Shown: one piece after another, positions 1 to 7,957 of the stretch
Layout of the letters: every line of letters begins with the position of its first letter
Position numbering within the stretch: position 1 is the stretch's first letter
NCBI RefSeq assembly: GCF_003334815.1
Contig: NZ_QOWO01000021.1
Direction: 5' to 3' (one strand)
From: Escherichia coli
GTDB taxonomy: Bacteria > Pseudomonadota > Gammaproteobacteria > Enterobacterales > Enterobacteriaceae
DNA length: 64,000 nucleotides
Made by a program: the position numbers and the translations under genes
Notes under the pieces: generated by a model
Told to the model about the DNA's origin: nothing
Seen by the model: only the letters and a program-made list of their open reading frames with translations
Database searches by the model: none

Positions 1-2
1 GC

Positions 3-140
3 TATGAATATCTGCTGGAGAAGTACAGCTCGCTGGAATCCATTCATACTGAGATTGGCACCAACGAACTTGGCGAGCTGGAAGAGCAAAAAATCTTTAC
101 CGGCGATCTGCTGACACCGTGGCGTAACAGGCGATATTGA
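3..140 (+). CDS. 3' end of an uncharacterized upstream gene (C-terminal 45 codons, truncated by window edge)
   Basis: Open frame from window start to a TGA at 138-140 (translation ...YEYLLEKYSSLESIHTEIGTNELGELEEQKIFTGDLLTPWRNRRY); co-directional with and 67 nt upstream of the helicase gene; frame choice not certain. Confidence 0.35.
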   Translation, partial: YEYLLEKYSSLESIHTEIGTNELGELEEQKIFTGDLLTPWRNRRY

Positions 141-207
141 TAGCGACGCCCTCTTCTCTAAGTTAAGTCAGCAGGCTTTTTCAGGACATCTTAAGAGGTA
201 AGTACAT

Positions 208-3200
208 ATGGACTTATTTGACCTGTTAACAATTAAATTTACCTTGCCCGCGAAAGCTGCCCCTGTAAGAAAAGTGGGTGGGAATTATGTTCATAAATTA
301 CTTTGCCGATCAACAACAGTATTGGCTCAAGTCAGAAATGCACGTTTCCAAGGATATTTTGAACTTGTTACGGGTCTAAAGCCCCCTCTGGACTATGTCT
401 ATCTGAAAGATCCAAATTCCAGGGGTAAATGCGCAGATGGTGTAGCTTCCCTTAAAGCTAAGGAACCATTTACATTCGAAAAATGGCGAGAAGATACTGA
501 GTTAAGCTGGGAGCAATTTCCAGAGCAGGTAATTAGCACTTCACCTAATGAAATTAATGAACAATGGCATCATCAATTTCAGTTTAGAGAGGACGATCCA
601 GAGCGCAATTCTCCCGGTCTCAGAAAACCCCAACTGGGTGCACTTCATGCAATTGCAGGCTATTTCGCCACTGATTTGCAGGTAGAACCTGCTACCGTCG
701 TACTGCCCACTGGAACGGGAAAAACGGAAACAATGCTGGCTACCATGATATACCAGCGATGCGAGCGAATTTTGCTCATAGTCCCATCTGACTCTCTCCG
801 AACACAGATATCCAAAAAGTTCATCGATTTAGGATATTTGCCAGAGCTAACAGTCGTTCCACCCAACATTGCACTTCCTAATGTCGCCATTATTAAGAAA
901 GGAATTCAGGTAGCGGAAGAAGCTAAGCAATTAGCTTGTGAATCAAACGTCTTGGTTGCTACGACCAGCGTTTTGTCTGCCTGCTCCGAAACAGCATTAA
1001 ATGCACTTTGCGAGTTGTGTAGCCATCTTTTTGTTGATGAGGCTCATCATATCTCAGCCTCATCATGGCAGACAATTCGCAAACGATTTAAAAACAAACG
1101 TGTAGTGCAGTTTACAGCTACCCCTTTTAGGAATGATAAAAAGTCCCTTGGTGGGAAAATTATCTATAACTACACGATGGGGGAAGCCCAACGAGCAGGC
1201 TATTTTACAAATGTAAATTTGCTGCCTGTAGAAGAGTATTACTCTGACCTTATGGATCACGCAATCGCAGATAAAGCTGTTGGCCAACTGCGTATAGACT
1301 TAAATAATGGCCTTGATCATTTGCTTATGGCCCGTACTAGCAATAAGCAGCGAGCAGAAGAAATACTGACTATTTATCAGAATATTGTACCGAACTTTAA
1401 TCCAATCGTTATTCATTCTGATTATCCTAAAACGGAAATAAAAAAACGTCTTAATAAATTATTATCAAGACAATCAAGAATCGTTATTTGCGTAGACATG
1501 TTGGGAGAAGGCTATGACCTACCCAACCTGAAAATTGCCGCTTTGCATGATCACCATAAGTCTCTTGCAGTAACTTTGCAGTTTATTGGCCGTTTTACTC
1601 GTGTCAATAAAGCACAGAAAATTGGTCAAGCTAGTGTAGTCATGAATGTTGCAGACCCTAATGTTGAAGGTGAATTACAGCATCTATATTCAACAGATGC
1701 CGATTGGGATAACGTATTAAGGCGACTCTCTGAAGGACGAATTGCTAGAGAGATTAGGTTGCAAGAGGTCGTGGATGCCTTAAAAAGGAAAGGTGATTTA
1801 CACGATCAGATCTCTCTCTGGAACCTTGAGCCAAGTTGTTCTGTCATGTTATTTAAAACATACTGTGACAATTGGGAGCCTGAAAGATACAAGGAAAAAC
1901 TGCCTAGATTCGATGAATCATGGCATGCAATAGCAGAAGATGAGAATTTGCTTGTTGTGCTAGCTGTCCAGACAACTTCAGTCCGGTGGGGAAACTACAA
2001 AGATCTTAAAGATACCAATTATAAAATTCTAATTGCTCATTGGGATCAAAGCAGATCCGCCTTGTTTGTATTCTCAAATGACTATAAAGCATTCCGGGTT
2101 GAGAATCTGGTTAGTACTATTTGTGATGATAAATTTGAAATTGTCAGTGGTGAAAAAGTTTTTAATGTATTTAATGGTATTGAATATCCTTTAGCAAGAA
2201 ATTTAGGCGCATCCCAAATTGGAGCAATAAGCTTTACTCAATATTTTGGCCCAAATGTCACTGAGGGGCTATCACTAATTGAAGCGTCTCAATCAAGCTT
2301 AAGCAATATTGCTGCATTAGGTTATGAATCCGGAAACCGTGTAATCTGGGGATGCTCGCAACGCAGAGGTAAGGTCTGGTCACCACAAAAAGGGGGTAGC
2401 ATTGCTGATTGGTGCAACTGGGTTAAGAAAACTTGGGACAAAATCTTTAGTTCTGAACCAGATCCAAACAACCTTACGCGTAACTTTTTGCGTCCTGTCC
2501 CATTACTCGAACCCTATAATGAATATCCAATATCAGCTCAATGGGGTGAGTATTTGCTTACTACGTTCGAAGATAAAGTTATTTTTCATTTTGATGCTAT
2601 ATCAGCTCACTTATATTTAGTAGATGTGAAGACTGCTGGAAAGTTTGACGATGGCAATGTGCGGCTCATTTTTTCTACAGATGAAACTTCATCTGAATAT
2701 AAATTATGTCTTACAGGTAGTACTACAGCAAAAGGTTATGCCTATCAGTTGATTTCTGGCCCTGAAGTCTTTGTACAGCGAGGTGAATCTGAACCTGTAT
2801 CACTATCAGAATATATGGAAATTGATCCAGTAATGATTCATTACTCCGATGGCTCATTTTCTTACAACGCTCATATAGTTCATGTAAGCCCAAATATTGG
2901 CCTTTATGACAAAGACGAAATTGTAGCTTTTGATTGGAATGGAACTGATGTTCGACTGGAATCAATGGGCTATACTCGTGATCCATCATCCATCCAGTGG
3001 CGTTGGTACAGTGAAATTAAAGATAATTACGATGTTATTATTAATGACGACGGTAAAGGTGAGTCAGCTGATTTAGTTGGGTTAAGAATAGTTGATGACT
3101 GTATTGTTCTCTCTTTAATTCATTGCAAGTATTCAGGCTCAGAAGAAGCTGGAGCAAGACTTAAAGATCTTTACGAAGTATGTGGGCAGGCACAGAGATG

Positions 3201-3489
3201 CATTCGTTGGAAGCACCTGAATCTTTCCTATTTATACCACCACATTAAGCGGCGCGAGGAACAGTGGCGATCGCTTGGTCATTCTCGCTTTCTAAAAGGC
3301 ACTATAAAAGACCTTGCAGCTATGAAAGAGCGCTCCAGAATCACACCTCTTAAATTCCAAGTTGTTATTGTTCAACCAGGACTTAGAGTAAACAAAATTA
3401 ATGAAGAAGGCCTTAAGTTACTTGGCAGTACGGCCTTATTTATCAAGAAAACAACGATGGCAGACTTAGTTGTTATTGGTTCTAAATAG
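208..3489 (+). CDS. SF2 (ResIII/DEAD-DEAH type) helicase-family ATPase with long uncharacterized C-terminal region (1093 aa)
   Basis: ATG at 208 preceded by AAGAGG at 193-198; Walker A GTGKT (nt 712-726), DEAHH (nt 1036-1050), TATP motif III, QFIGRFTR motif VI (nt 1579-1602); residues ~470-1093 unassigned; AT-rich codon usage. Confidence 0.85.
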   Translation: MDLFDLLTIKFTLPAKAAPVRKVGGNYVHKLLCRSTTVLAQVRNARFQGYFELVTGLKPPLDYVYLKDPNSRGKCADGVASLKAKEPFTFEKWREDTELSWEQFPEQVISTSPNEINEQWHHQFQFREDDPERNSPGLRKPQLGALHAIAGYFATDLQVEPATVVLPTGTGKTETMLATMIYQRCERILLIVPSDSLRTQISKKFIDLGYLPELTVVPPNIALPNVAIIKKGIQVAEEAKQLACESNVLVATTSVLSACSETALNALCELCSHLFVDEAHHISASSWQTIRKRFKNKRVVQFTATPFRNDKKSLGGKIIYNYTMGEAQRAGYFTNVNLLPVEEYYSDLMDHAIADKAVGQLRIDLNNGLDHLLMARTSNKQRAEEILTIYQNIVPNFNPIVIHSDYPKTEIKKRLNKLLSRQSRIVICVDMLGEGYDLPNLKIAALHDHHKSLAVTLQFIGRFTRVNKAQKIGQASVVMNVADPNVEGELQHLYSTDADWDNVLRRLSEGRIAREIRLQEVVDALKRKGDLHDQISLWNLEPSCSVMLFKTYCDNWEPERYKEKLPRFDESWHAIAEDENLLVVLAVQTTSVRWGNYKDLKDTNYKILIAHWDQSRSALFVFSNDYKAFRVENLVSTICDDKFEIVSGEKVFNVFNGIEYPLARNLGASQIGAISFTQYFGPNVTEGLSLIEASQSSLSNIAALGYESGNRVIWGCSQRRGKVWSPQKGGSIADWCNWVKKTWDKIFSSEPDPNNLTRNFLRPVPLLEPYNEYPISAQWGEYLLTTFEDKVIFHFDAISAHLYLVDVKTAGKFDDGNVRLIFSTDETSSEYKLCLTGSTTAKGYAYQLISGPEVFVQRGESEPVSLSEYMEIDPVMIHYSDGSFSYNAHIVHVSPNIGLYDKDEIVAFDWNGTDVRLESMGYTRDPSSIQWRWYSEIKDNYDVIINDDGKGESADLVGLRIVDDCIVLSLIHCKYSGSEEAGARLKDLYEVCGQAQRCIRWKHLNLSYLYHHIKRREEQWRSLGHSRFLKGTIKDLAAMKERSRITPLKFQVVIVQPGLRVNKINEEGLKLLGSTALFIKKTTMADLVVIGSK

Positions 3490-3584
3490 GACGAAAAATT
3501 GATAATATTCGATTTTAGTAATATTAAATAACGAATTGAATATGCTATAAAAATGATGGAAAAAGCAAGAAAAGAGAGTAAATT

Positions 3585-4907
3585 ATGATCCTATTCTTTT
3601 ATCCCTACATAATGCTTTGCTATAGCGCTGGATACGCTTTATTGCAAACACTGGATGGGATGGGTGTGATTAGTACCAACTTTGTAGAAATGAACGCACA
3701 GGGTGCTCTTTTGAGCAGTTACTGGTCTCCCAATAAAGTTGCTGTAGTCTTAGGAGGATGTTTTCTTGAGCTCTTTATTTTATTATTACCTTTTGTTTTC
3801 TTGAGCTCATGGATACTTGCCAGAAAAAAGGGACTCATCATTTGTTTTGTTCTTCTTATAACCCCTGGCCTATTATCGCTCTGTCACCTTCTTCCTGCTA
3901 TCCAGTGGTTGCCATTGACCTATGAAATAGGAGGTACAGGTGCAACAGGTAACGCAGCTGGACTCGGAAGTCTTAGCTTCATAGGGCTATTGAGTGGTTG
4001 GATTTTGGCAGTAATCATTAGTGATATTTTTGCTACAGGAGAGAAATTCAGACAGTGGACAGATATTTTCCTAATACTGACAGCAGTTGGAAACGGTCTT
4101 TTCTGGGTATCAGACAGAGAGGTGGCTGTCGGTAAAACCGCATATGAGAAAACAATTACGGATATTAATGATGCAGCCAAATACCTTCTTTTTCAGGTGA
4201 AAGACTACAGCCGCATGTGTGACAATAACGGGCTTACCGAAATGTCATCTTGTCAGTGGGCATCGTACATTCAAGAAACGCTAGAAAATATTGCCAGTAC
4301 AAAATCATCTGTTATTGAATATGTAATACCTGAAAATCTTGACACCTTCTACCGAATTCCTGAGTACTATAGCAATCAAGTATCTCCAGATAAAATCAGA
4401 CAGGAATTTCAAGACTTCAATAAAAAACTATGCCCAAATAAATCTCTTTCCAAAACAATAACACAATTGCCATCACCTTCTCGATGGTGCCAGACCCCAC
4501 CCCCAGCTTACTGCAATGCCATTCAAGAGGGAAAATATAAAACAGGCATGTCAGACCGTTTCGCTGTCGCCAATGAGTGTGTAACTACATCATTATTAAG
4601 GTACCGCCAAGTTTTATTAAAAGAACAAGCTCGTTTATCCTTAAGTAAAAATGCCCCTCATTATAGATGGATGTGGTTTATTGCTATGTCTTTTTTTATT
4701 GGAGGGAAAATTGCCAATGTAATGACAAAAATAGGTAATGTAGAGAATCGTCTCATAACTGAGAAACATAGAGTTAAATTCATCCTTCTAAAAACATGTG
4801 GTTTTATTGTGCGTACATTAATAAGATGTGCCATCTTATTTCGGAAAGTGTTTTTTTCAACGATCAATTATATCAAAAGATTGAAGAAAATAAAGCATGA
4901 TACTTAA
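3585..4907 (+). CDS. Putative polytopic membrane protein, function unknown (440 aa; start codon uncertain)
   Basis: 1.3 kb ORF in AT-rich DNA; N-terminal half has several hydrophobic helix-length segments, one more near C-terminus; 95 nt downstream of helicase gene, same strand. Confidence 0.55.
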   Translation: MILFFYPYIMLCYSAGYALLQTLDGMGVISTNFVEMNAQGALLSSYWSPNKVAVVLGGCFLELFILLLPFVFLSSWILARKKGLIICFVLLITPGLLSLCHLLPAIQWLPLTYEIGGTGATGNAAGLGSLSFIGLLSGWILAVIISDIFATGEKFRQWTDIFLILTAVGNGLFWVSDREVAVGKTAYEKTITDINDAAKYLLFQVKDYSRMCDNNGLTEMSSCQWASYIQETLENIASTKSSVIEYVIPENLDTFYRIPEYYSNQVSPDKIRQEFQDFNKKLCPNKSLSKTITQLPSPSRWCQTPPPAYCNAIQEGKYKTGMSDRFAVANECVTTSLLRYRQVLLKEQARLSLSKNAPHYRWMWFIAMSFFIGGKIANVMTKIGNVENRLITEKHRVKFILLKTCGFIVRTLIRCAILFRKVFFSTINYIKRLKKIKHDT

Positions 4908-5425
4908 ATAGAATAGTGACAAACACTCAATTGCAAGGTCATTCTTTGTGTTGAATGAATAAAGAACAAGGGGTACTTTCTCCTGTACCCTTGGAGTTTA
5001 TATTAGATAATACATCTGAATCTACTCTGGTGATTCACACTAGCGGCAATAGTGTTTTGTACTCAACCGTTTATACAATAGCATCCATGACTAATTGAGC
5101 GTAGAGTTCAGTAAGCTTATTAATTATCCACTTATTGAAAGAATTCGTGGAACGCTCTTACCGATAAAATCAGTGAATGTATTGCTCTTGGTGATAATGC
5201 CATTGGGAAAAATTACCAACCAGCCATCCCATTAAGGCTAGCCGATTAACTTTAATTGAATCGCCACGGATTTGGCAAACAATTCACATGTCTCTACTAC
5301 GCTTGATTTTTTCGTAGTATAACAGCGTAACCCTTTTTCTCCCGGTTTACATACAAGAAACCTGTTCATCATTGCTGATGAAGATATATGCTGCCCTTAC
5401 ACGATAATTGTTTAGGATAGTAACA

Positions 5426-6391
5426 ATGCCTTTAGATTTAAGTAACACTTTAGTGATTGGCATCAGCGCGACTGCGCTTTTTGATATGAGTGAATCCGAT
5501 CGCATGTTTTGCGAAACCTATGCGACCGATCCTGATAGCGCCATTGAAAAATACCGCGCCTATATGCTGGAGCACGAAAACCAACCTTTACAGCCCGGAA
5601 CAGGCTACCCTTTAGTCAAAGCGTTGCTGGGTCTGAACCAGTACCGTCAACCGGATGATAAATCACCGTTGGTTGAAGTCGTTGTGATGTCACGTAACAG
5701 CCCTGATACAGGTATCCGCGTTCTGAATACTATTCGCCATGACAGGCTCGATATCACGCGCTCTGCCTTTACAGCAGGCGAAACTGTTGCTGATTACCTT
5801 GATGCCTTTGATGTGGATCTGTTTTTAACAACTAACGTTGAAGATGCGCAAAAGGTGATTGATTCCCGATTCTGCGCCGCTGCAATCCTGAAAGATCCGC
5901 CTTCTGACGCATCTGATATCCCGGAAGGGCAAGTGCGCATTGCTTTTGACGGCGACGCGGTACTTTTTTCCGATCAAAGCGAACTGGTTTATAAGACCCA
6001 AGGAATGGTTGCCTTTCATGCTCAGGAAGACGCGCAGCAGGATATCCCTATGGAAGAGGGGCCTTATGCCACTTTGCTAAAAAAAATAGCCAAGCTTCAG
6101 GAACGATTGCCGACCCGCGTTGAGTATTCTCCTGTTCGTATTGCATTGGTGACAGCCCGAAATAGCCCTTCGGAAATGCGCGTTATTAAAACGCTAAGAA
6201 GCTGGGGGGTATATGTCGATGAAGCTTTTTTTCTTGGCGGCGTAGAGAAAACAAAAGTTCTGAAGGCATTTAAACCACACATTTTCTTCGACGATCAGGA
6301 TGTGCATTTAAATACAGCTGCAAAGGTTGTACCTTCCGGGAAAGTACCTTATGCCAGTAACTCCGAACTGGCAGAGCGTGAAGCATCGTAA
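5426..6391 (+). CDS. HAD-like 5'-nucleotidase-family protein (putative)
   Basis: ORF with AGGA 8 nt upstream of ATG 5426; two internally similar halves each with an Asp-rich segment (LFDMSESD and IAFDGDAVLF) and C-terminal FFDDQD resembling HAD phosphatase motifs; family assignment from recollection. Confidence 0.65.
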   Translation: MPLDLSNTLVIGISATALFDMSESDRMFCETYATDPDSAIEKYRAYMLEHENQPLQPGTGYPLVKALLGLNQYRQPDDKSPLVEVVVMSRNSPDTGIRVLNTIRHDRLDITRSAFTAGETVADYLDAFDVDLFLTTNVEDAQKVIDSRFCAAAILKDPPSDASDIPEGQVRIAFDGDAVLFSDQSELVYKTQGMVAFHAQEDAQQDIPMEEGPYATLLKKIAKLQERLPTRVEYSPVRIALVTARNSPSEMRVIKTLRSWGVYVDEAFFLGGVEKTKVLKAFKPHIFFDDQDVHLNTAAKVVPSGKVPYASNSELAEREAS

Positions 6392-6582
6392 TTATCGCTG
6401 ATAAACCATTTAGTCATTAAGGCTGGATGGTTTGTATACCACACGCAAAATAACGGCCCTACCCCAGATCAATGCTCGCCTCTGAACACCTCTTTCCTGT
6501 GCCATTCCACAAACTGTTCGCCCGGATAATTTTCTTTAACCGGTGGCAACGCAATCGCTTTTCCCGCAAAATCCCAGAACAG

Positions 6583-7344
6583 TCACTGTACCACTCCACC
6601 ATCATTTACCGCACCGGAAACTACCACACGCATATTTTCATCCAGGTCAATCGAACCGCGATCAAACGCTTTATGATGGATTGCGCACAATGCCAGGCCA
6701 TTAGGTACTTCACAAGGGCCATGGTGCTGTTTCCATCTGATATGAGCAGCTTCCAGAGCAATCGGCGCATTGTCGTGGCGCATGTTAAAGCCGCAGATAG
6801 CGCACTGATAATTGTAAGCATGTAGCACCATCTGGCGAAACTTCGGATCGCGTTGACGAAGAGAGGTGCGAATATCAAAACTCCTCTCGTCAGCTATCTC
6901 TTCCTGAATACTGGCCGGGAAATGCGCCTCCAGGAGCTGCTGCGCCAGCGTATCAATTAACCTGTAATTTTTTTCCACCAACGCAAAATTATCGGCATCA
7001 AATCCACCAGCGACATTATATTCAATGAGTTCACGTCGGGGCGGCTGGCGGCTACCACTGGTTGAGCACAGTTCCGCGTTATGTAGTTCCCAGAAGCCAT
7101 CGCCCTTCAGACGCCAGAACGGCATGTCCGGGCGCTGGTCACGGCGCTGCGGTCCATAACGTTCCAGGAGATCCAACAGGGGCTCGTAGATTTCAGAAGC
7201 ATAGTTAAACAGGCGACCATGACTCTGCCGATAGTGTGAGAGAACGTACAGCAGCAATAATGGCTTATGTGGCGCACGTTGTTCACCTTTGCGCCAGATG
7301 GTGATATTTGATATCGCTTGCTTTAGGGTTTTGTCAGAGGTCAT
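6583..7344 (-). CDS. HNH endonuclease-family protein with uncharacterized N-terminal domain
   Basis: C-terminal HNH signature (YQCAICGF ... AAHIRWKQHHG ... NGLALCAIHHKAFDRG); start could be ATG 7344 or upstream TTG 7389. Confidence 0.75.
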   Translation of the reverse strand: MTSDKTLKQAISNITIWRKGEQRAPHKPLLLLYVLSHYRQSHGRLFNYASEIYEPLLDLLERYGPQRRDQRPDMPFWRLKGDGFWELHNAELCSTSGSRQPPRRELIEYNVAGGFDADNFALVEKNYRLIDTLAQQLLEAHFPASIQEEIADERSFDIRTSLRQRDPKFRQMVLHAYNYQCAICGFNMRHDNAPIALEAAHIRWKQHHGPCEVPNGLALCAIHHKAFDRGSIDLDENMRVVVSGAVNDGGVVQ

Positions 7345-7463
7345 TGCGTTGAAGAATCCATGAGCATATGTTTGCGATGATGCTCGCAACTATATGTATA
7401 TTCAAGGCATTATTGCAGACATCCTTTTTGCCTGACGGCTCTGTACCTGGCAGATGGAATTCT

Positions 7464-7518
7464 GAAAAAAATACAGCGACCAACCAGTCCTAAGCGGTCT
7501 GGTTGGTCTTTTAAATTT
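7464..7518. terminator. Hairpin (gaccaaccag / ctggttggtc) flanked by A-run and T-run; candidate bidirectional intrinsic terminator
   Basis: 10-bp perfect inverted repeat at 7478-7487 / 7499-7508 with 11-nt loop, AAAAAAA upstream and TTTTAAATTT downstream. Confidence 0.5.
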
Positions 7519-7549
7519 AAACATCAGCCAAGGAGTAACGGCATTCAAC

Positions 7550-7780
7550 TCACTCGCCATTACCCCGATTGATCTTCGCATAGTCAAACGGCGTAATCGC
7601 TCTTTCCCGATTGGCATCCAGAAAATCGACCCACCACTGCAACATCAGCTTACGCTCATCCAGATATTCCGCTTTATGGATTATACGCGGCCTGCACTGA
7701 GTTACGTCCATGTGGCTCATCTGACGTTCAGCCGCTTTATCTCGTGCTGTTTTGGTCTCAATACTTCCATGCCGTTGCAA
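7550..7780 (-). pseudogene. Remnant of a P4-type tyrosine integrase (C-terminal ~70 codons only)
   Basis: Translation aligns to the C-terminus of the intact integrase at 10668-11933 (about 37 of 58 residues identical by manual alignment, e.g. IHKAE.L.ER.LMLQWW.DFLDANRER); N-terminal catalytic body absent. Confidence 0.7.
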
Positions 7781-7957
7781 TTACCTCTTAAACCATTCCT
7801 TACCATTTTCATGTCTTCGATAAGAAATCTTCATCATGCATGATCGATTTTGTCTATCTATTCGATCGAATTTTTTCTTTTTACCCTGTCTTTTGCATGG
7901 TTTTAAAATAAGCAACCTTCTTTATCGGGTGGGTAAGAACCAACGGAGATGATTGAA

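Follow-up and report, generated by a model that had tools for sequence, protein, structure and literature searches.

The closest described relatives of the locus analysed here are islands that sit beside tRNA genes and behind P4-like integrases. GI-pheV is known to be mosaic and modular, and recombination among its modules is established (PMC11537424). A gene order that runs from the tRNA gene through an integrase and (shiA) to a sulfatase/phosphoethanolamine (pEtN) transferase and tia is known to recur at more than one tRNA gene and with more than one integrase, and YjgX-like transferases have been noted before at pheU, pheV and selC (PMC7371111, PMC6174562, PMC7545054). A 39-kb element is also known at leuX of O157:H7 NADC 6564 (PMC6408774). 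E. coli has, in addition, integrase-only defence islands and P4-like satellite hotspots, and their mobilisation has been described as unclear (PMC10121019).

The window, which is the whole 64-kb stretch of DNA that was analysed, belongs to the E. coli chromosome, and its tRNA-Phe gene is pheV. Read away from the tRNA gene, the island consists of an intact integrase gene, a proximal module with two cassette genes, the stump of a second integrase gene and a distal module that starts with a nuclease gene. The features concerned are the following.

12131..12206, minus strand: tRNA-Phe (pheV), the attachment site of the island, located between yqgA and speC; identified by ARAGORN.
10668..11933, minus strand: intact P4-type integrase of 421 aa that adjoins pheV; an open reading frame, annotated as intact in EC556.
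10668..10853, minus strand: 3' end of the intact integrase gene, the direct-repeat partner of the stump; defined by alignments and by two repeat families at an offset of 3118.
10350..10667, no strand assigned: transferase-to-integrase spacer of 318 bp; read from the sequence.
8850..10349, plus strand: YjgX-like pEtN transferase gene, part of the cassette; its product matches NCBIfam pEtN-transferase families, all under the curated cut-offs.
7949..8698, plus strand: outer membrane protein (OMP) gene of the Tia/Hek/Hes family, part of the cassette; an open reading frame.
7736..7948, plus strand: upstream region of the OMP gene, the right side of the junction; conserved at junction-bearing loci.
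7730..7741, no strand assigned: truncation junction (...agccgc/tttatc...), which falls between 7735 and 7736; located by multiple alignment and a 100-mer search.
7736..7780, minus strand: spurious 5' extension of the stump's open reading frame, 15 codons with a TTG start; past 7735 there is no homology to any full-length integrase.
7550..7735, minus strand: integrase remnant, the last 61 codons and the stop of a P4-type (PRK09692-like) tyrosine integrase, a pseudogene; BLASTP and tblastn.
7478..7508, minus strand: conserved hairpin that separates the integrase stop from the HNH gene, with a 10-bp stem and an 11-nt loop; found by folding.
6469..7344, minus strand: gene of a phosphorothioated (PT)-DNA-binding HNH restriction endonuclease, the first gene of the distal module; NCBIfam NF045808, E 1.9e-114.

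Beyond the HNH gene, the distal module continues with a 5'-nucleotidase, a membrane protein and a 1093-aa DEAD/DEAH helicase, and the defence-type nucleotidase family among the island cargo is PDC-S08. In EC556, which carries a 99.9% identical sequence, the island runs for another ~14 kb, up to the kps capsule genes. Comparison with the translation of the intact FACU 2024 copy revealed an internal stop in the HNH gene at 6583-6585 (Arg to stop), and judging from this lesion the nuclease gene of the window is now inactivated. On the proximal side, the RefSeq homologues of the OMP are named 'outer membrane protein' or 'invasion outer membrane protein Tia', and a putative promoter is suggested by a promoter-like match at 7880-7909, upstream of the OMP gene. 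The pEtN transferase gene is kept beside the OMP gene at all four tRNA loci where the junction occurs (pheV, pheU, leuX and selC). The spacer behind it contains a GC-rich hairpin at 10646-10663, right after the stop of the intact integrase, and is common to leuX and pheU islands at 85-100% despite their different integrase 5' parts; homologues of the spacer are also present behind the stump in EM10-18-28 and behind intB in K-12.

The original prediction held that the open reading frame at 7550-7780 encodes the last ~70 residues of an integrase that is about 64% identical to the intact one. The homology is genuine, with 41 of 65 residues identical to the product of 10668-11933 (63%, E = 2e-26, BLASTP), and the integrase-derived part amounts to only 61 codons, not ~70. 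The accompanying claim that the DNA is similar too was borne out at 75% identity over 164 nt (E ~1e-24): the motif quoted in its favour is present in both copies, with the coordinate pair given for it ~12 nt out of register. Furthermore, comparison of 7400-7800 with 10600-11000, which had been proposed as a check, recovered in-register direct repeats in two blocks, 7568-7681 with 10686-10799 (75%) and 7713-7735 with 10831-10853 (91%), both at the offset of 3118 (repeat search). The stump matches only positions 355-400 of the 413 positions of the NCBIfam PRK09692 profile, and at the same place in EC556 PGAP annotates an 'integrase; incomplete; missing N-terminus'.

Both the protein and the DNA comparisons place the stump closer to the leuX integrase than to the neighbouring pheV integrase. 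The leuX integrase of other strains is 70% identical to it in protein (E 9e-27), with an identical ...YAKINRGNGE end followed by the stop, and the stump together with its downstream flank reaches 92% in DNA. The stump clusters with the FACU leuX integrase at 88-90%, as compared to 67-74% for the pheV-type 3' ends.

A functional integrase of this type is a product of ~400-420 aa with arm-binding and core-binding domains, of which the stump retains 61 C-terminal codons only. The R-H-R-Y residues are not found in frame either: the break point lies after the HGFR box, so the HxxR box is absent, and a +1/-1 indel pair scrambles ~12 codons and leaves the ancestral RNSV(R/Q)AAY segment in another frame. 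Because this indel pair shifts the RAAY frame, the catalytic Tyr codon is lost from the open reading frame; here the RAAY Tyr and the R-H-R-Y motif are those that we take to be the catalytic ones, as is general for tyrosine recombinases. When two full-length integrases were used as tblastn queries, no other integrase pieces were detected in the 64-kb window. Since only the intact gene and the stump were found, frameshifts cannot rebuild an integrase gene, and this rules out the objection raised in advance that the fragment might belong to an intact gene broken by frameshifts. The stump thus combines significant partial homology with the absence of the rest of the gene, which is what defines an integrase remnant, and the annotation of other stump alleles records frameshifts or an internal stop. 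As judged by these lesions, 7550-7735 is a non-functional pseudogene stump of a P4-type integrase, and it presumably has no function of its own. An integrase pseudogene is an ordinary kind of feature, one that is already annotated in public genomes.

It might be argued that the 76-codon open reading frame or the stump DNA is functional, either as a small integrase-interfering protein or as a regulator of the OMP or nuclease gene. The frame is indeed open in the window, a conserved hairpin lies downstream of it, and the junction-proximal ~63 nt are kept even in the most eroded stump allele. However, alleles with frameshifts, a 12-nt deletion and internal stops exist, the window allele is a compensated frameshift, the start codon lies in unrelated DNA, and on its left the stump ends at 7546, 7559, 7569, 7616 or 7673 depending on the locus, which together leave a functional role with very little probability.

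The hairpin with A/T runs that had been placed at 7464-7518 proved to be real. Its stem, formed by 7478-7487 and 7499-7508, has a dG of -24.5 kcal/mol (z = -3.3) and lies between flanking runs of A7 and T4. The hairpin is 96.6% conserved behind the full-length leuX integrase, and in RIVM_C039227 it displays one compensatory pair change from C-G to T-A. A terminator scan of 7300-8000 called no site, though the hairpin is strong; on the integrase-sense strand the U7 run begins 6 nt past the stem and the loop is 11 nt long. The hairpin at 7478-7508 is a candidate terminator or insulator of the integrase.

The most informative property of the stump is the point at which it breaks off. In a multiple alignment of seven stumps from other genomes and two full-length integrases, all stumps stop at one nucleotide (...CTGACGTTCAGCCGC/TTTATCTCG...), and to the right of the boundary between 7735 and 7736 every aligned stump is followed by the upstream region of the OMP gene. 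Of 5426 complete E. coli genomes, 973 contain a junction-spanning 100-mer at a coverage of at least 80%, and 1085, roughly one in five, contain it when all matches are counted, with no more than three copies per genome. Beyond the window, 16 junction-bearing loci out of these ~1000 genomes were inspected, and the junction was located at four tRNA genes.

pheV: the window, EC556 and ECONIH6.
pheU: AR_0055 and RM14721.
leuX: O157:H7 86-24/NADC 6564, EM10-18-28 and 89-3156.
selC: MSB1_6C directly; in RIVM_C039227, W409 and STEC005 the proximal module is of the same kind.

In the selC islands the OMP-stump junction lies behind an unrelated phiR73-type integrase without 3' homology, and the same pEtN transferase gene is also present in two of the three. 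Of ten junction-bearing loci, seven match the OMP upstream region at 7736-7948 at 95.7-98.1%, and the three others (at pheV, pheU and leuX) match it at 84-85%. Outside E. coli, the exact junction pattern had no match in a collection with one genome per species, which holds few Escherichia, and a looser 17-base pattern gave 50 matches, a chance number, the five enterobacterial ones among them having no similarity to 7540-7960.

The same break nucleotide in ~1000 genomes at four tRNA loci argues that the truncation arose once, long ago, and not by decay in the lineage of the window. On this distribution, the break point was created once in an ancestral island and then inherited. The single ancestral junction could have come from two tandem islands and a deletion, or from a tandem duplication.

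The first of these possibilities has to be distinguished from the history that had originally been proposed for the window, in which the island is composite or was built by serial insertions. Spelled out for pheV, this would mean that two islands integrated in turn there in the lineage of the window, that the second integrase decayed in place and that the tRNA repeat was lost. Such a history agrees with the orientation of the stump, which is that of the intact integrase (both on the minus strand), with the position of the HNH gene and the other cargo on the expected distal side, and with the G+C content of the modules, 36-40% over 1-5000 versus 45-49% over 5400-10500; tandem accretion followed by deletion is also a possible origin of the one ancestral junction. 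Nevertheless, serial insertion at pheV does not account for an identical junction at four tRNA loci in ~1000 genomes. Among full-length integrases, the one most similar to the stump sits at leuX beside the same HNH gene and is not of the same-tRNA type, and no att repeat separates the modules: a second copy of the 23-nt pheV 3' end was absent at up to three mismatches from the window and from the 41.6-kb EC556 locus, which reaches 20 kb further left. The earlier failure to find a tRNA-Phe 3'-end direct repeat between the modules thus holds at this threshold, where pheV alone was matched. In addition, the reciprocal mosaic of EM10-18-28, described below, indicates homologous and not site-specific recombination. 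Serial insertion at pheV is therefore improbable; of the original proposal, the composite nature of the island stands, with blocks that reassort across loci, and the second insertion at pheV falls with the shared break point.

The explanation that we favour, and regard as probable, is that the stump is an old, shared scar that flanks a tia/pEtN-transferase cassette, and that the repeated integrase 3' end provides the homology for exchange of the cassette and of the cargo. The cassette is a unit of ~3.1 kb composed of the tia-family OMP gene, the yjgX-like pEtN-transferase gene, the spacer and the integrase 3' end, with the stump on its distal side. The terminal ~190 bp of an integrase gene, present as the direct repeats 10668-10853 and the stump, enclose it. 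Once the break between 7735 and 7736 had arisen in the ancestral island and been inherited, the cassette and the cargo past the stump would later have moved among P4-type-integrase islands at pheV, pheU, leuX and selC. In this movement, homologous recombination would have used the integrase 3' repeat as its patch of homology, and it could have taken the form of gap repair, of insertion or excision of the Campbell type, or of a crossover with a full-length integrase from another island. Integration and excision by a single crossover between direct repeats (Campbell-type) is a general mechanism of homologous recombination. We infer the recombination mechanism and its direction from the observed homology, break point, distribution, collinearity and stump polyphyly, together with the reciprocal mosaic of one strain.

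Collinearity is seen in pairs of empty and filled alleles. FACU 2024 and JX21CE33 have the order leuX, full-length integrase, the same hairpin and an intact HNH gene, collinear with 6475-7735 of the window at 92-96%, and over 6475-7723 the leuX islands with this integrase-HNH order are 95.6% identical to the window. The stump, the hairpin and the HNH gene are thus the usual sequel of a full-length leuX-type integrase, which means that the distal module begins inside the stump. A second pair is provided by K-12, where the order is leuX, intB, spacer and yjgX and the part behind intB is 96-99% identical to the sequence behind the stump of EM10-18-28, also at leuX, in which the stump is followed by the spacer and then by a yjgX pseudogene. 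The filled alleles differ from the empty ones by a block made of the OMP gene, the transferase gene, the spacer and the integrase 3' end. Campbell-type events are expected to leave both of the resulting marks: the direct repeats that bracket the cassette (7550-7735 versus 10668-10853, offset 3118, 75-91%) and empty alleles, which are FACU 2024 and JX21CE33 for the window-type stump with HNH gene and K-12 for EM10-18-28.

EM10-18-28 also carries the trace of a crossover. Its informative sites were scored against K-12 intB as the resident type and against the 3' end of the intact integrase of the window as the cassette type. The stump is of cassette type at nt 24-70 from the junction and of K-12 type from nt 88, and the intact integrase is of K-12 type up to nt 70 and of cassette type from nt 85. 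This pattern, which comes from one strain, is that of one reciprocal crossover in the repeat, and would correspond to a Campbell-type insertion of the cassette into intB or to the reverse excision. The intact integrase of the window is pheV-type throughout, with no reciprocal partner visible, and the reciprocal pattern was seen in EM10-18-28 only.

The same strain bears on the origin of the junction, as opposed to its later spread. An illegitimate tandem duplication of the OMP gene, pEtN transferase gene, spacer and integrase 3' end within one island could have joined a point upstream of the OMP gene to a point inside the integrase, the distal copy being later eroded or replaced, and no second island would then be needed. 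The layout of EM10-18-28 (pEtN transferase, spacer and integrase 3' end, followed by OMP, pEtN transferase, spacer and integrase) is exactly that of such a duplication, and in EM10-18-28 and MSB1_6C the stump has a cassette-type part that is pheV-like, as are the 3' ends of cassette-bearing intact integrases. However, the two transferase-spacer-integrase copies of EM10-18-28 are 89-92% identical to each other and the distal copy is 99% identical to K-12; the copies being diverged and the distal one K-12-like, they did not arise by in-situ duplication, and the insertion of a diverged cassette is indicated instead. Moreover, the OMP loci that lack the stump did not yield an unduplicated, pre-junction ancestor in which the native OMP upstream region is longer. 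Those examined are either cut by IS600 or have an H-NS-family gene where the upstream region would be expected, and they are uninformative about the ancestor because they are secondarily disrupted. We treat duplication as a tentative possibility for the origin of the junction alone.

Exchange through the repeat is also supported by the polyphyly of the stump alleles, which are 88-95% identical to differing full-length integrase 3' ends and 67-84% identical between clusters. The stump of MSB1_6C clusters with the pheV integrase (95%), that of EM10-18-28 with the cassette-type 3' end of the intact integrases of the window and AR_0055 (92-93%), and that of AR_0055 stands alone. The right flank is shared by the stumps, and their first 7 nt, GCGGCTG, are constant, with one-base exceptions in RIVM_C039227, whose extracted segment does not include the first base, and in 89-3156. 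In most stump alleles the type switches within ~25 nt of the junction, which is short for a RecA-dependent crossover and is a point against the recombination model. The switch adjoins a 17-nt block that is near-invariant in integrases, one full-length integrase and two stumps differing by one to three bases.

An abrupt switch beside such a block, at the same break point in very different stump types, might suggest that a mobile element consisting of tia and the pEtN transferase gene inserts site-specifically at the integrase motif …GAACGTCAGATGAGCCA…, with the break point recurring independently. Such an element is highly unlikely: the cassette contains no recombinase or transposase, and the opposite side never carries the N-terminal part of a target integrase but an intact gene. 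Furthermore, the crossovers of EM10-18-28 lie 70-88 nt off the junction and not at it, and the constancy of the first 7 nt past the junction, with its two single-base exceptions, is what inheritance predicts.

The recombination that we favour does not extend to every case. The phiR73-type integrase at selC is unrelated and has no 3' homology, and recombination at the integrase 3' end therefore cannot explain every transfer. The chimeric leuX integrase of O157, with a leuX-type 5' part and a window-type last ~130 nt and spacer, was considered separately as a product of cassette insertion and was rejected, because K-12 intB shares this 3' end and spacer without the cassette, and the mosaic thus predates the cassette.

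The sequences on the two sides of the junction vary independently. Behind the stump, the distal cargo may be the PT-DNA HNH gene, dptFGH, a type I R-M system with an AAA ATPase, a TerB-N/ATPase/helicase trio, a DUF4365 gene, IS1 followed by a type I R-M system, papG, or a K-12-like yjgX-nanXY block. The proximal side varies too, in the OMP gene, in the transferase gene and in the DNA between transferase and integrase, where there is either nothing extra or else a 3.5-kb AAA-protein gene, a TPR gene or leoABC. In the window, the OMP upstream region is 97-98% identical to "tia" loci, and the OMP coding region matches the O157/AR_0055 allele at 97% and tia at only 73%; by these comparisons, the window is a mosaic at the scale of genes.

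Whole blocks are also found in new company. The stump and HNH block occurs at pheV, at pheU and in a selC-type island behind different proximal modules, with the same kind of internal stop in the HNH gene, and the same proximal block of OMP and pEtN transferase genes lies beside many different distal cargos. One chimeric leuX integrase protein, WP_001218930.1, is accompanied by three sets of stump and cargo, namely dptFGH, a type I R-M system with an AAA ATPase, and the K-12-like block. The comparison with pheV islands of other strains that had been recommended at the outset, extended here to pheU, leuX and selC, points to free reassortment of the proximal and distal modules. These findings support the view that the proximal (OMP and pEtN transferase) and distal modules have separate histories and that the island is composite, and homologous recombination via the integrase 3' repeat appears to be the best-supported way in which the modules were joined and reshuffled.

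A broader claim, which we put forward as a possibility at most, is that the ~190-bp integrase 3' end is a recurrently used homology handle, by which the cassette hops between pheV, pheU, leuX and selC and anti-phage cargo is swapped without site-specific machinery. If this were true, it would show concretely how the integrase-only defence islands of PMC10121019 could be mobilised, and recurrent recombination of this kind would help to explain how cargo passes from one tRNA island to another, across loci and strains, with no dedicated mobility genes. At the stump, a fixed landmark, a conserved virulence/LPS-modification cassette borders on cargo that is highly variable and for the most part defensive, and the junction sequence would be a handy anchor for cataloguing the distal cargo.

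The general Campbell-type scheme resembles the present case in the direct repeats that bracket the cassette, in the reciprocal mosaic at the crossover of EM10-18-28, and in the existence of empty and filled sites. It differs in that the repeats of the window are just ~75% identical.

GI-pheV (PMC11537424) and the LAA island (PMC5539235) share with the window a P4-like integrase beside pheV and modules of differing history and G+C content, and in both the turnover of modules has been ascribed to recombination, insertion and deletion. Unlike in the window, their modules are separated by IS elements, and the searched text of these two papers makes no mention of the stump, the invariant break point or the occurrence at four tRNA genes. 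The tRNA-proximal gene order is common to SE-PAI and PAI tia (PMC7371111, PMC7545054, PMC6174562) and to the leuX element of NADC 6564 (PMC6408774). In contrast to the SE-PAI/PAI tia backbone, the window lacks subAB, shiA and leoABC, and its OMP allele is of the O157/AR_0055 type, 73% identical to tia; the stump past the OMP gene is not discussed in these four papers. In the full-text literature searched, the backbone and its mosaicism are described, and the stump, the invariant junction and recombination through the stump are not.

KpLE2 of K-12 (leuX, intB, yjgX) has a homologous integrase 3' end, spacer and transferase, 84-87% identical to 10350-10988 of the window. It represents the empty allele for EM10-18-28 and, unlike the window, contains no OMP gene, stump or junction. 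Finally, the islands of PMC10121019 are similar in having a P4-type integrase at a tRNA gene and highly variable defence cargo after it, and at the loci compared here the defence cargo includes the PT-DNA nuclease, the PDC-S08 nucleotidase, dptFGH, and a type I R-M system with an AAA ATPase. They differ from the islands described here in two respects: the stretches inspected here contain no satellite genes, and the cargo here begins past a truncated integrase, behind a virulence/LPS cassette, and not after an intact integrase.

A recombination seam lies at the start codon of the tia-family OMP gene (within 7736-8698). The 213 bp upstream of this gene are 97-98% identical to the corresponding DNA of 'tia' loci, while the coding region shares 97% identity with the O157/AR_0055 allele and only about 73% with tia. 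Strain EC556, which carries a near-identical pheV locus, is 99.9% identical to the window apart from an IS3-family element (22421-23649 of that locus), which is inserted between the OMP and pEtN-transferase genes and is absent from the window (8699-8849).

Further features on either side of the cassette and the truncated integrase (the stump) are as follows.

1-128, hsdM remnant from a type I R-M system; the window begins inside it
208-4907, plus strand, a DEAD/DEAH helicase (1093 aa) followed by a multi-pass membrane protein (440 aa)
5408-6391, plus strand, '5'-nucleotidase' gene matching PDC-S08
6469-7344, minus strand, PT-DNA-binding HNH restriction endonuclease gene (NF045808), with an internal stop at 6583-6585
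10646-10663, perfect GC-rich hairpin with a 7-bp stem (CCCGGGC attt GCCCGGG), 5 nt past the stop codon of the intact integrase

The internal stop of the HNH gene replaces an arginine codon and removes the last 38 residues when compared to the intact copy of FACU 2024, a strain with a full-length leuX integrase. In other strains, HNH copies located at pheU and within a selC-type island are likewise annotated with an internal stop. The neighboring '5'-nucleotidase' is matched over its full length by PDC-S08, a PADLOC candidate single-gene defence family (E 1.7e-134). The hsdM remnant shares 95-100% identity with intact hsdM genes found behind the stump in other strains; the EC556 annotation lists it as an M subunit without its C-terminus, adjoining an hsdR fragment and symE. 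The helicase and membrane-protein block sits amid defence genes; its G+C content is low (36-40%), and no family matches were obtained for the long C-terminal region of the helicase or for the membrane protein. These two genes may represent an uncharacterised defence pair.

ECONIH6 (pheV) and AR_0055 (pheU) have in common the integrase protein WP_001218773.1, the cassette, the stump and the TerB-N, ATPase and helicase cargo, and this shared set is consistent with either tRNA-Phe gene serving as target in place of the other. The terminator-like hairpin at 10646-10663, which differs from the element behind the stump, is retained behind pheV-, pheU- and leuX-type integrases with the cassette-type 3' end, and is also conserved behind intB, the leuX integrase gene of K-12.
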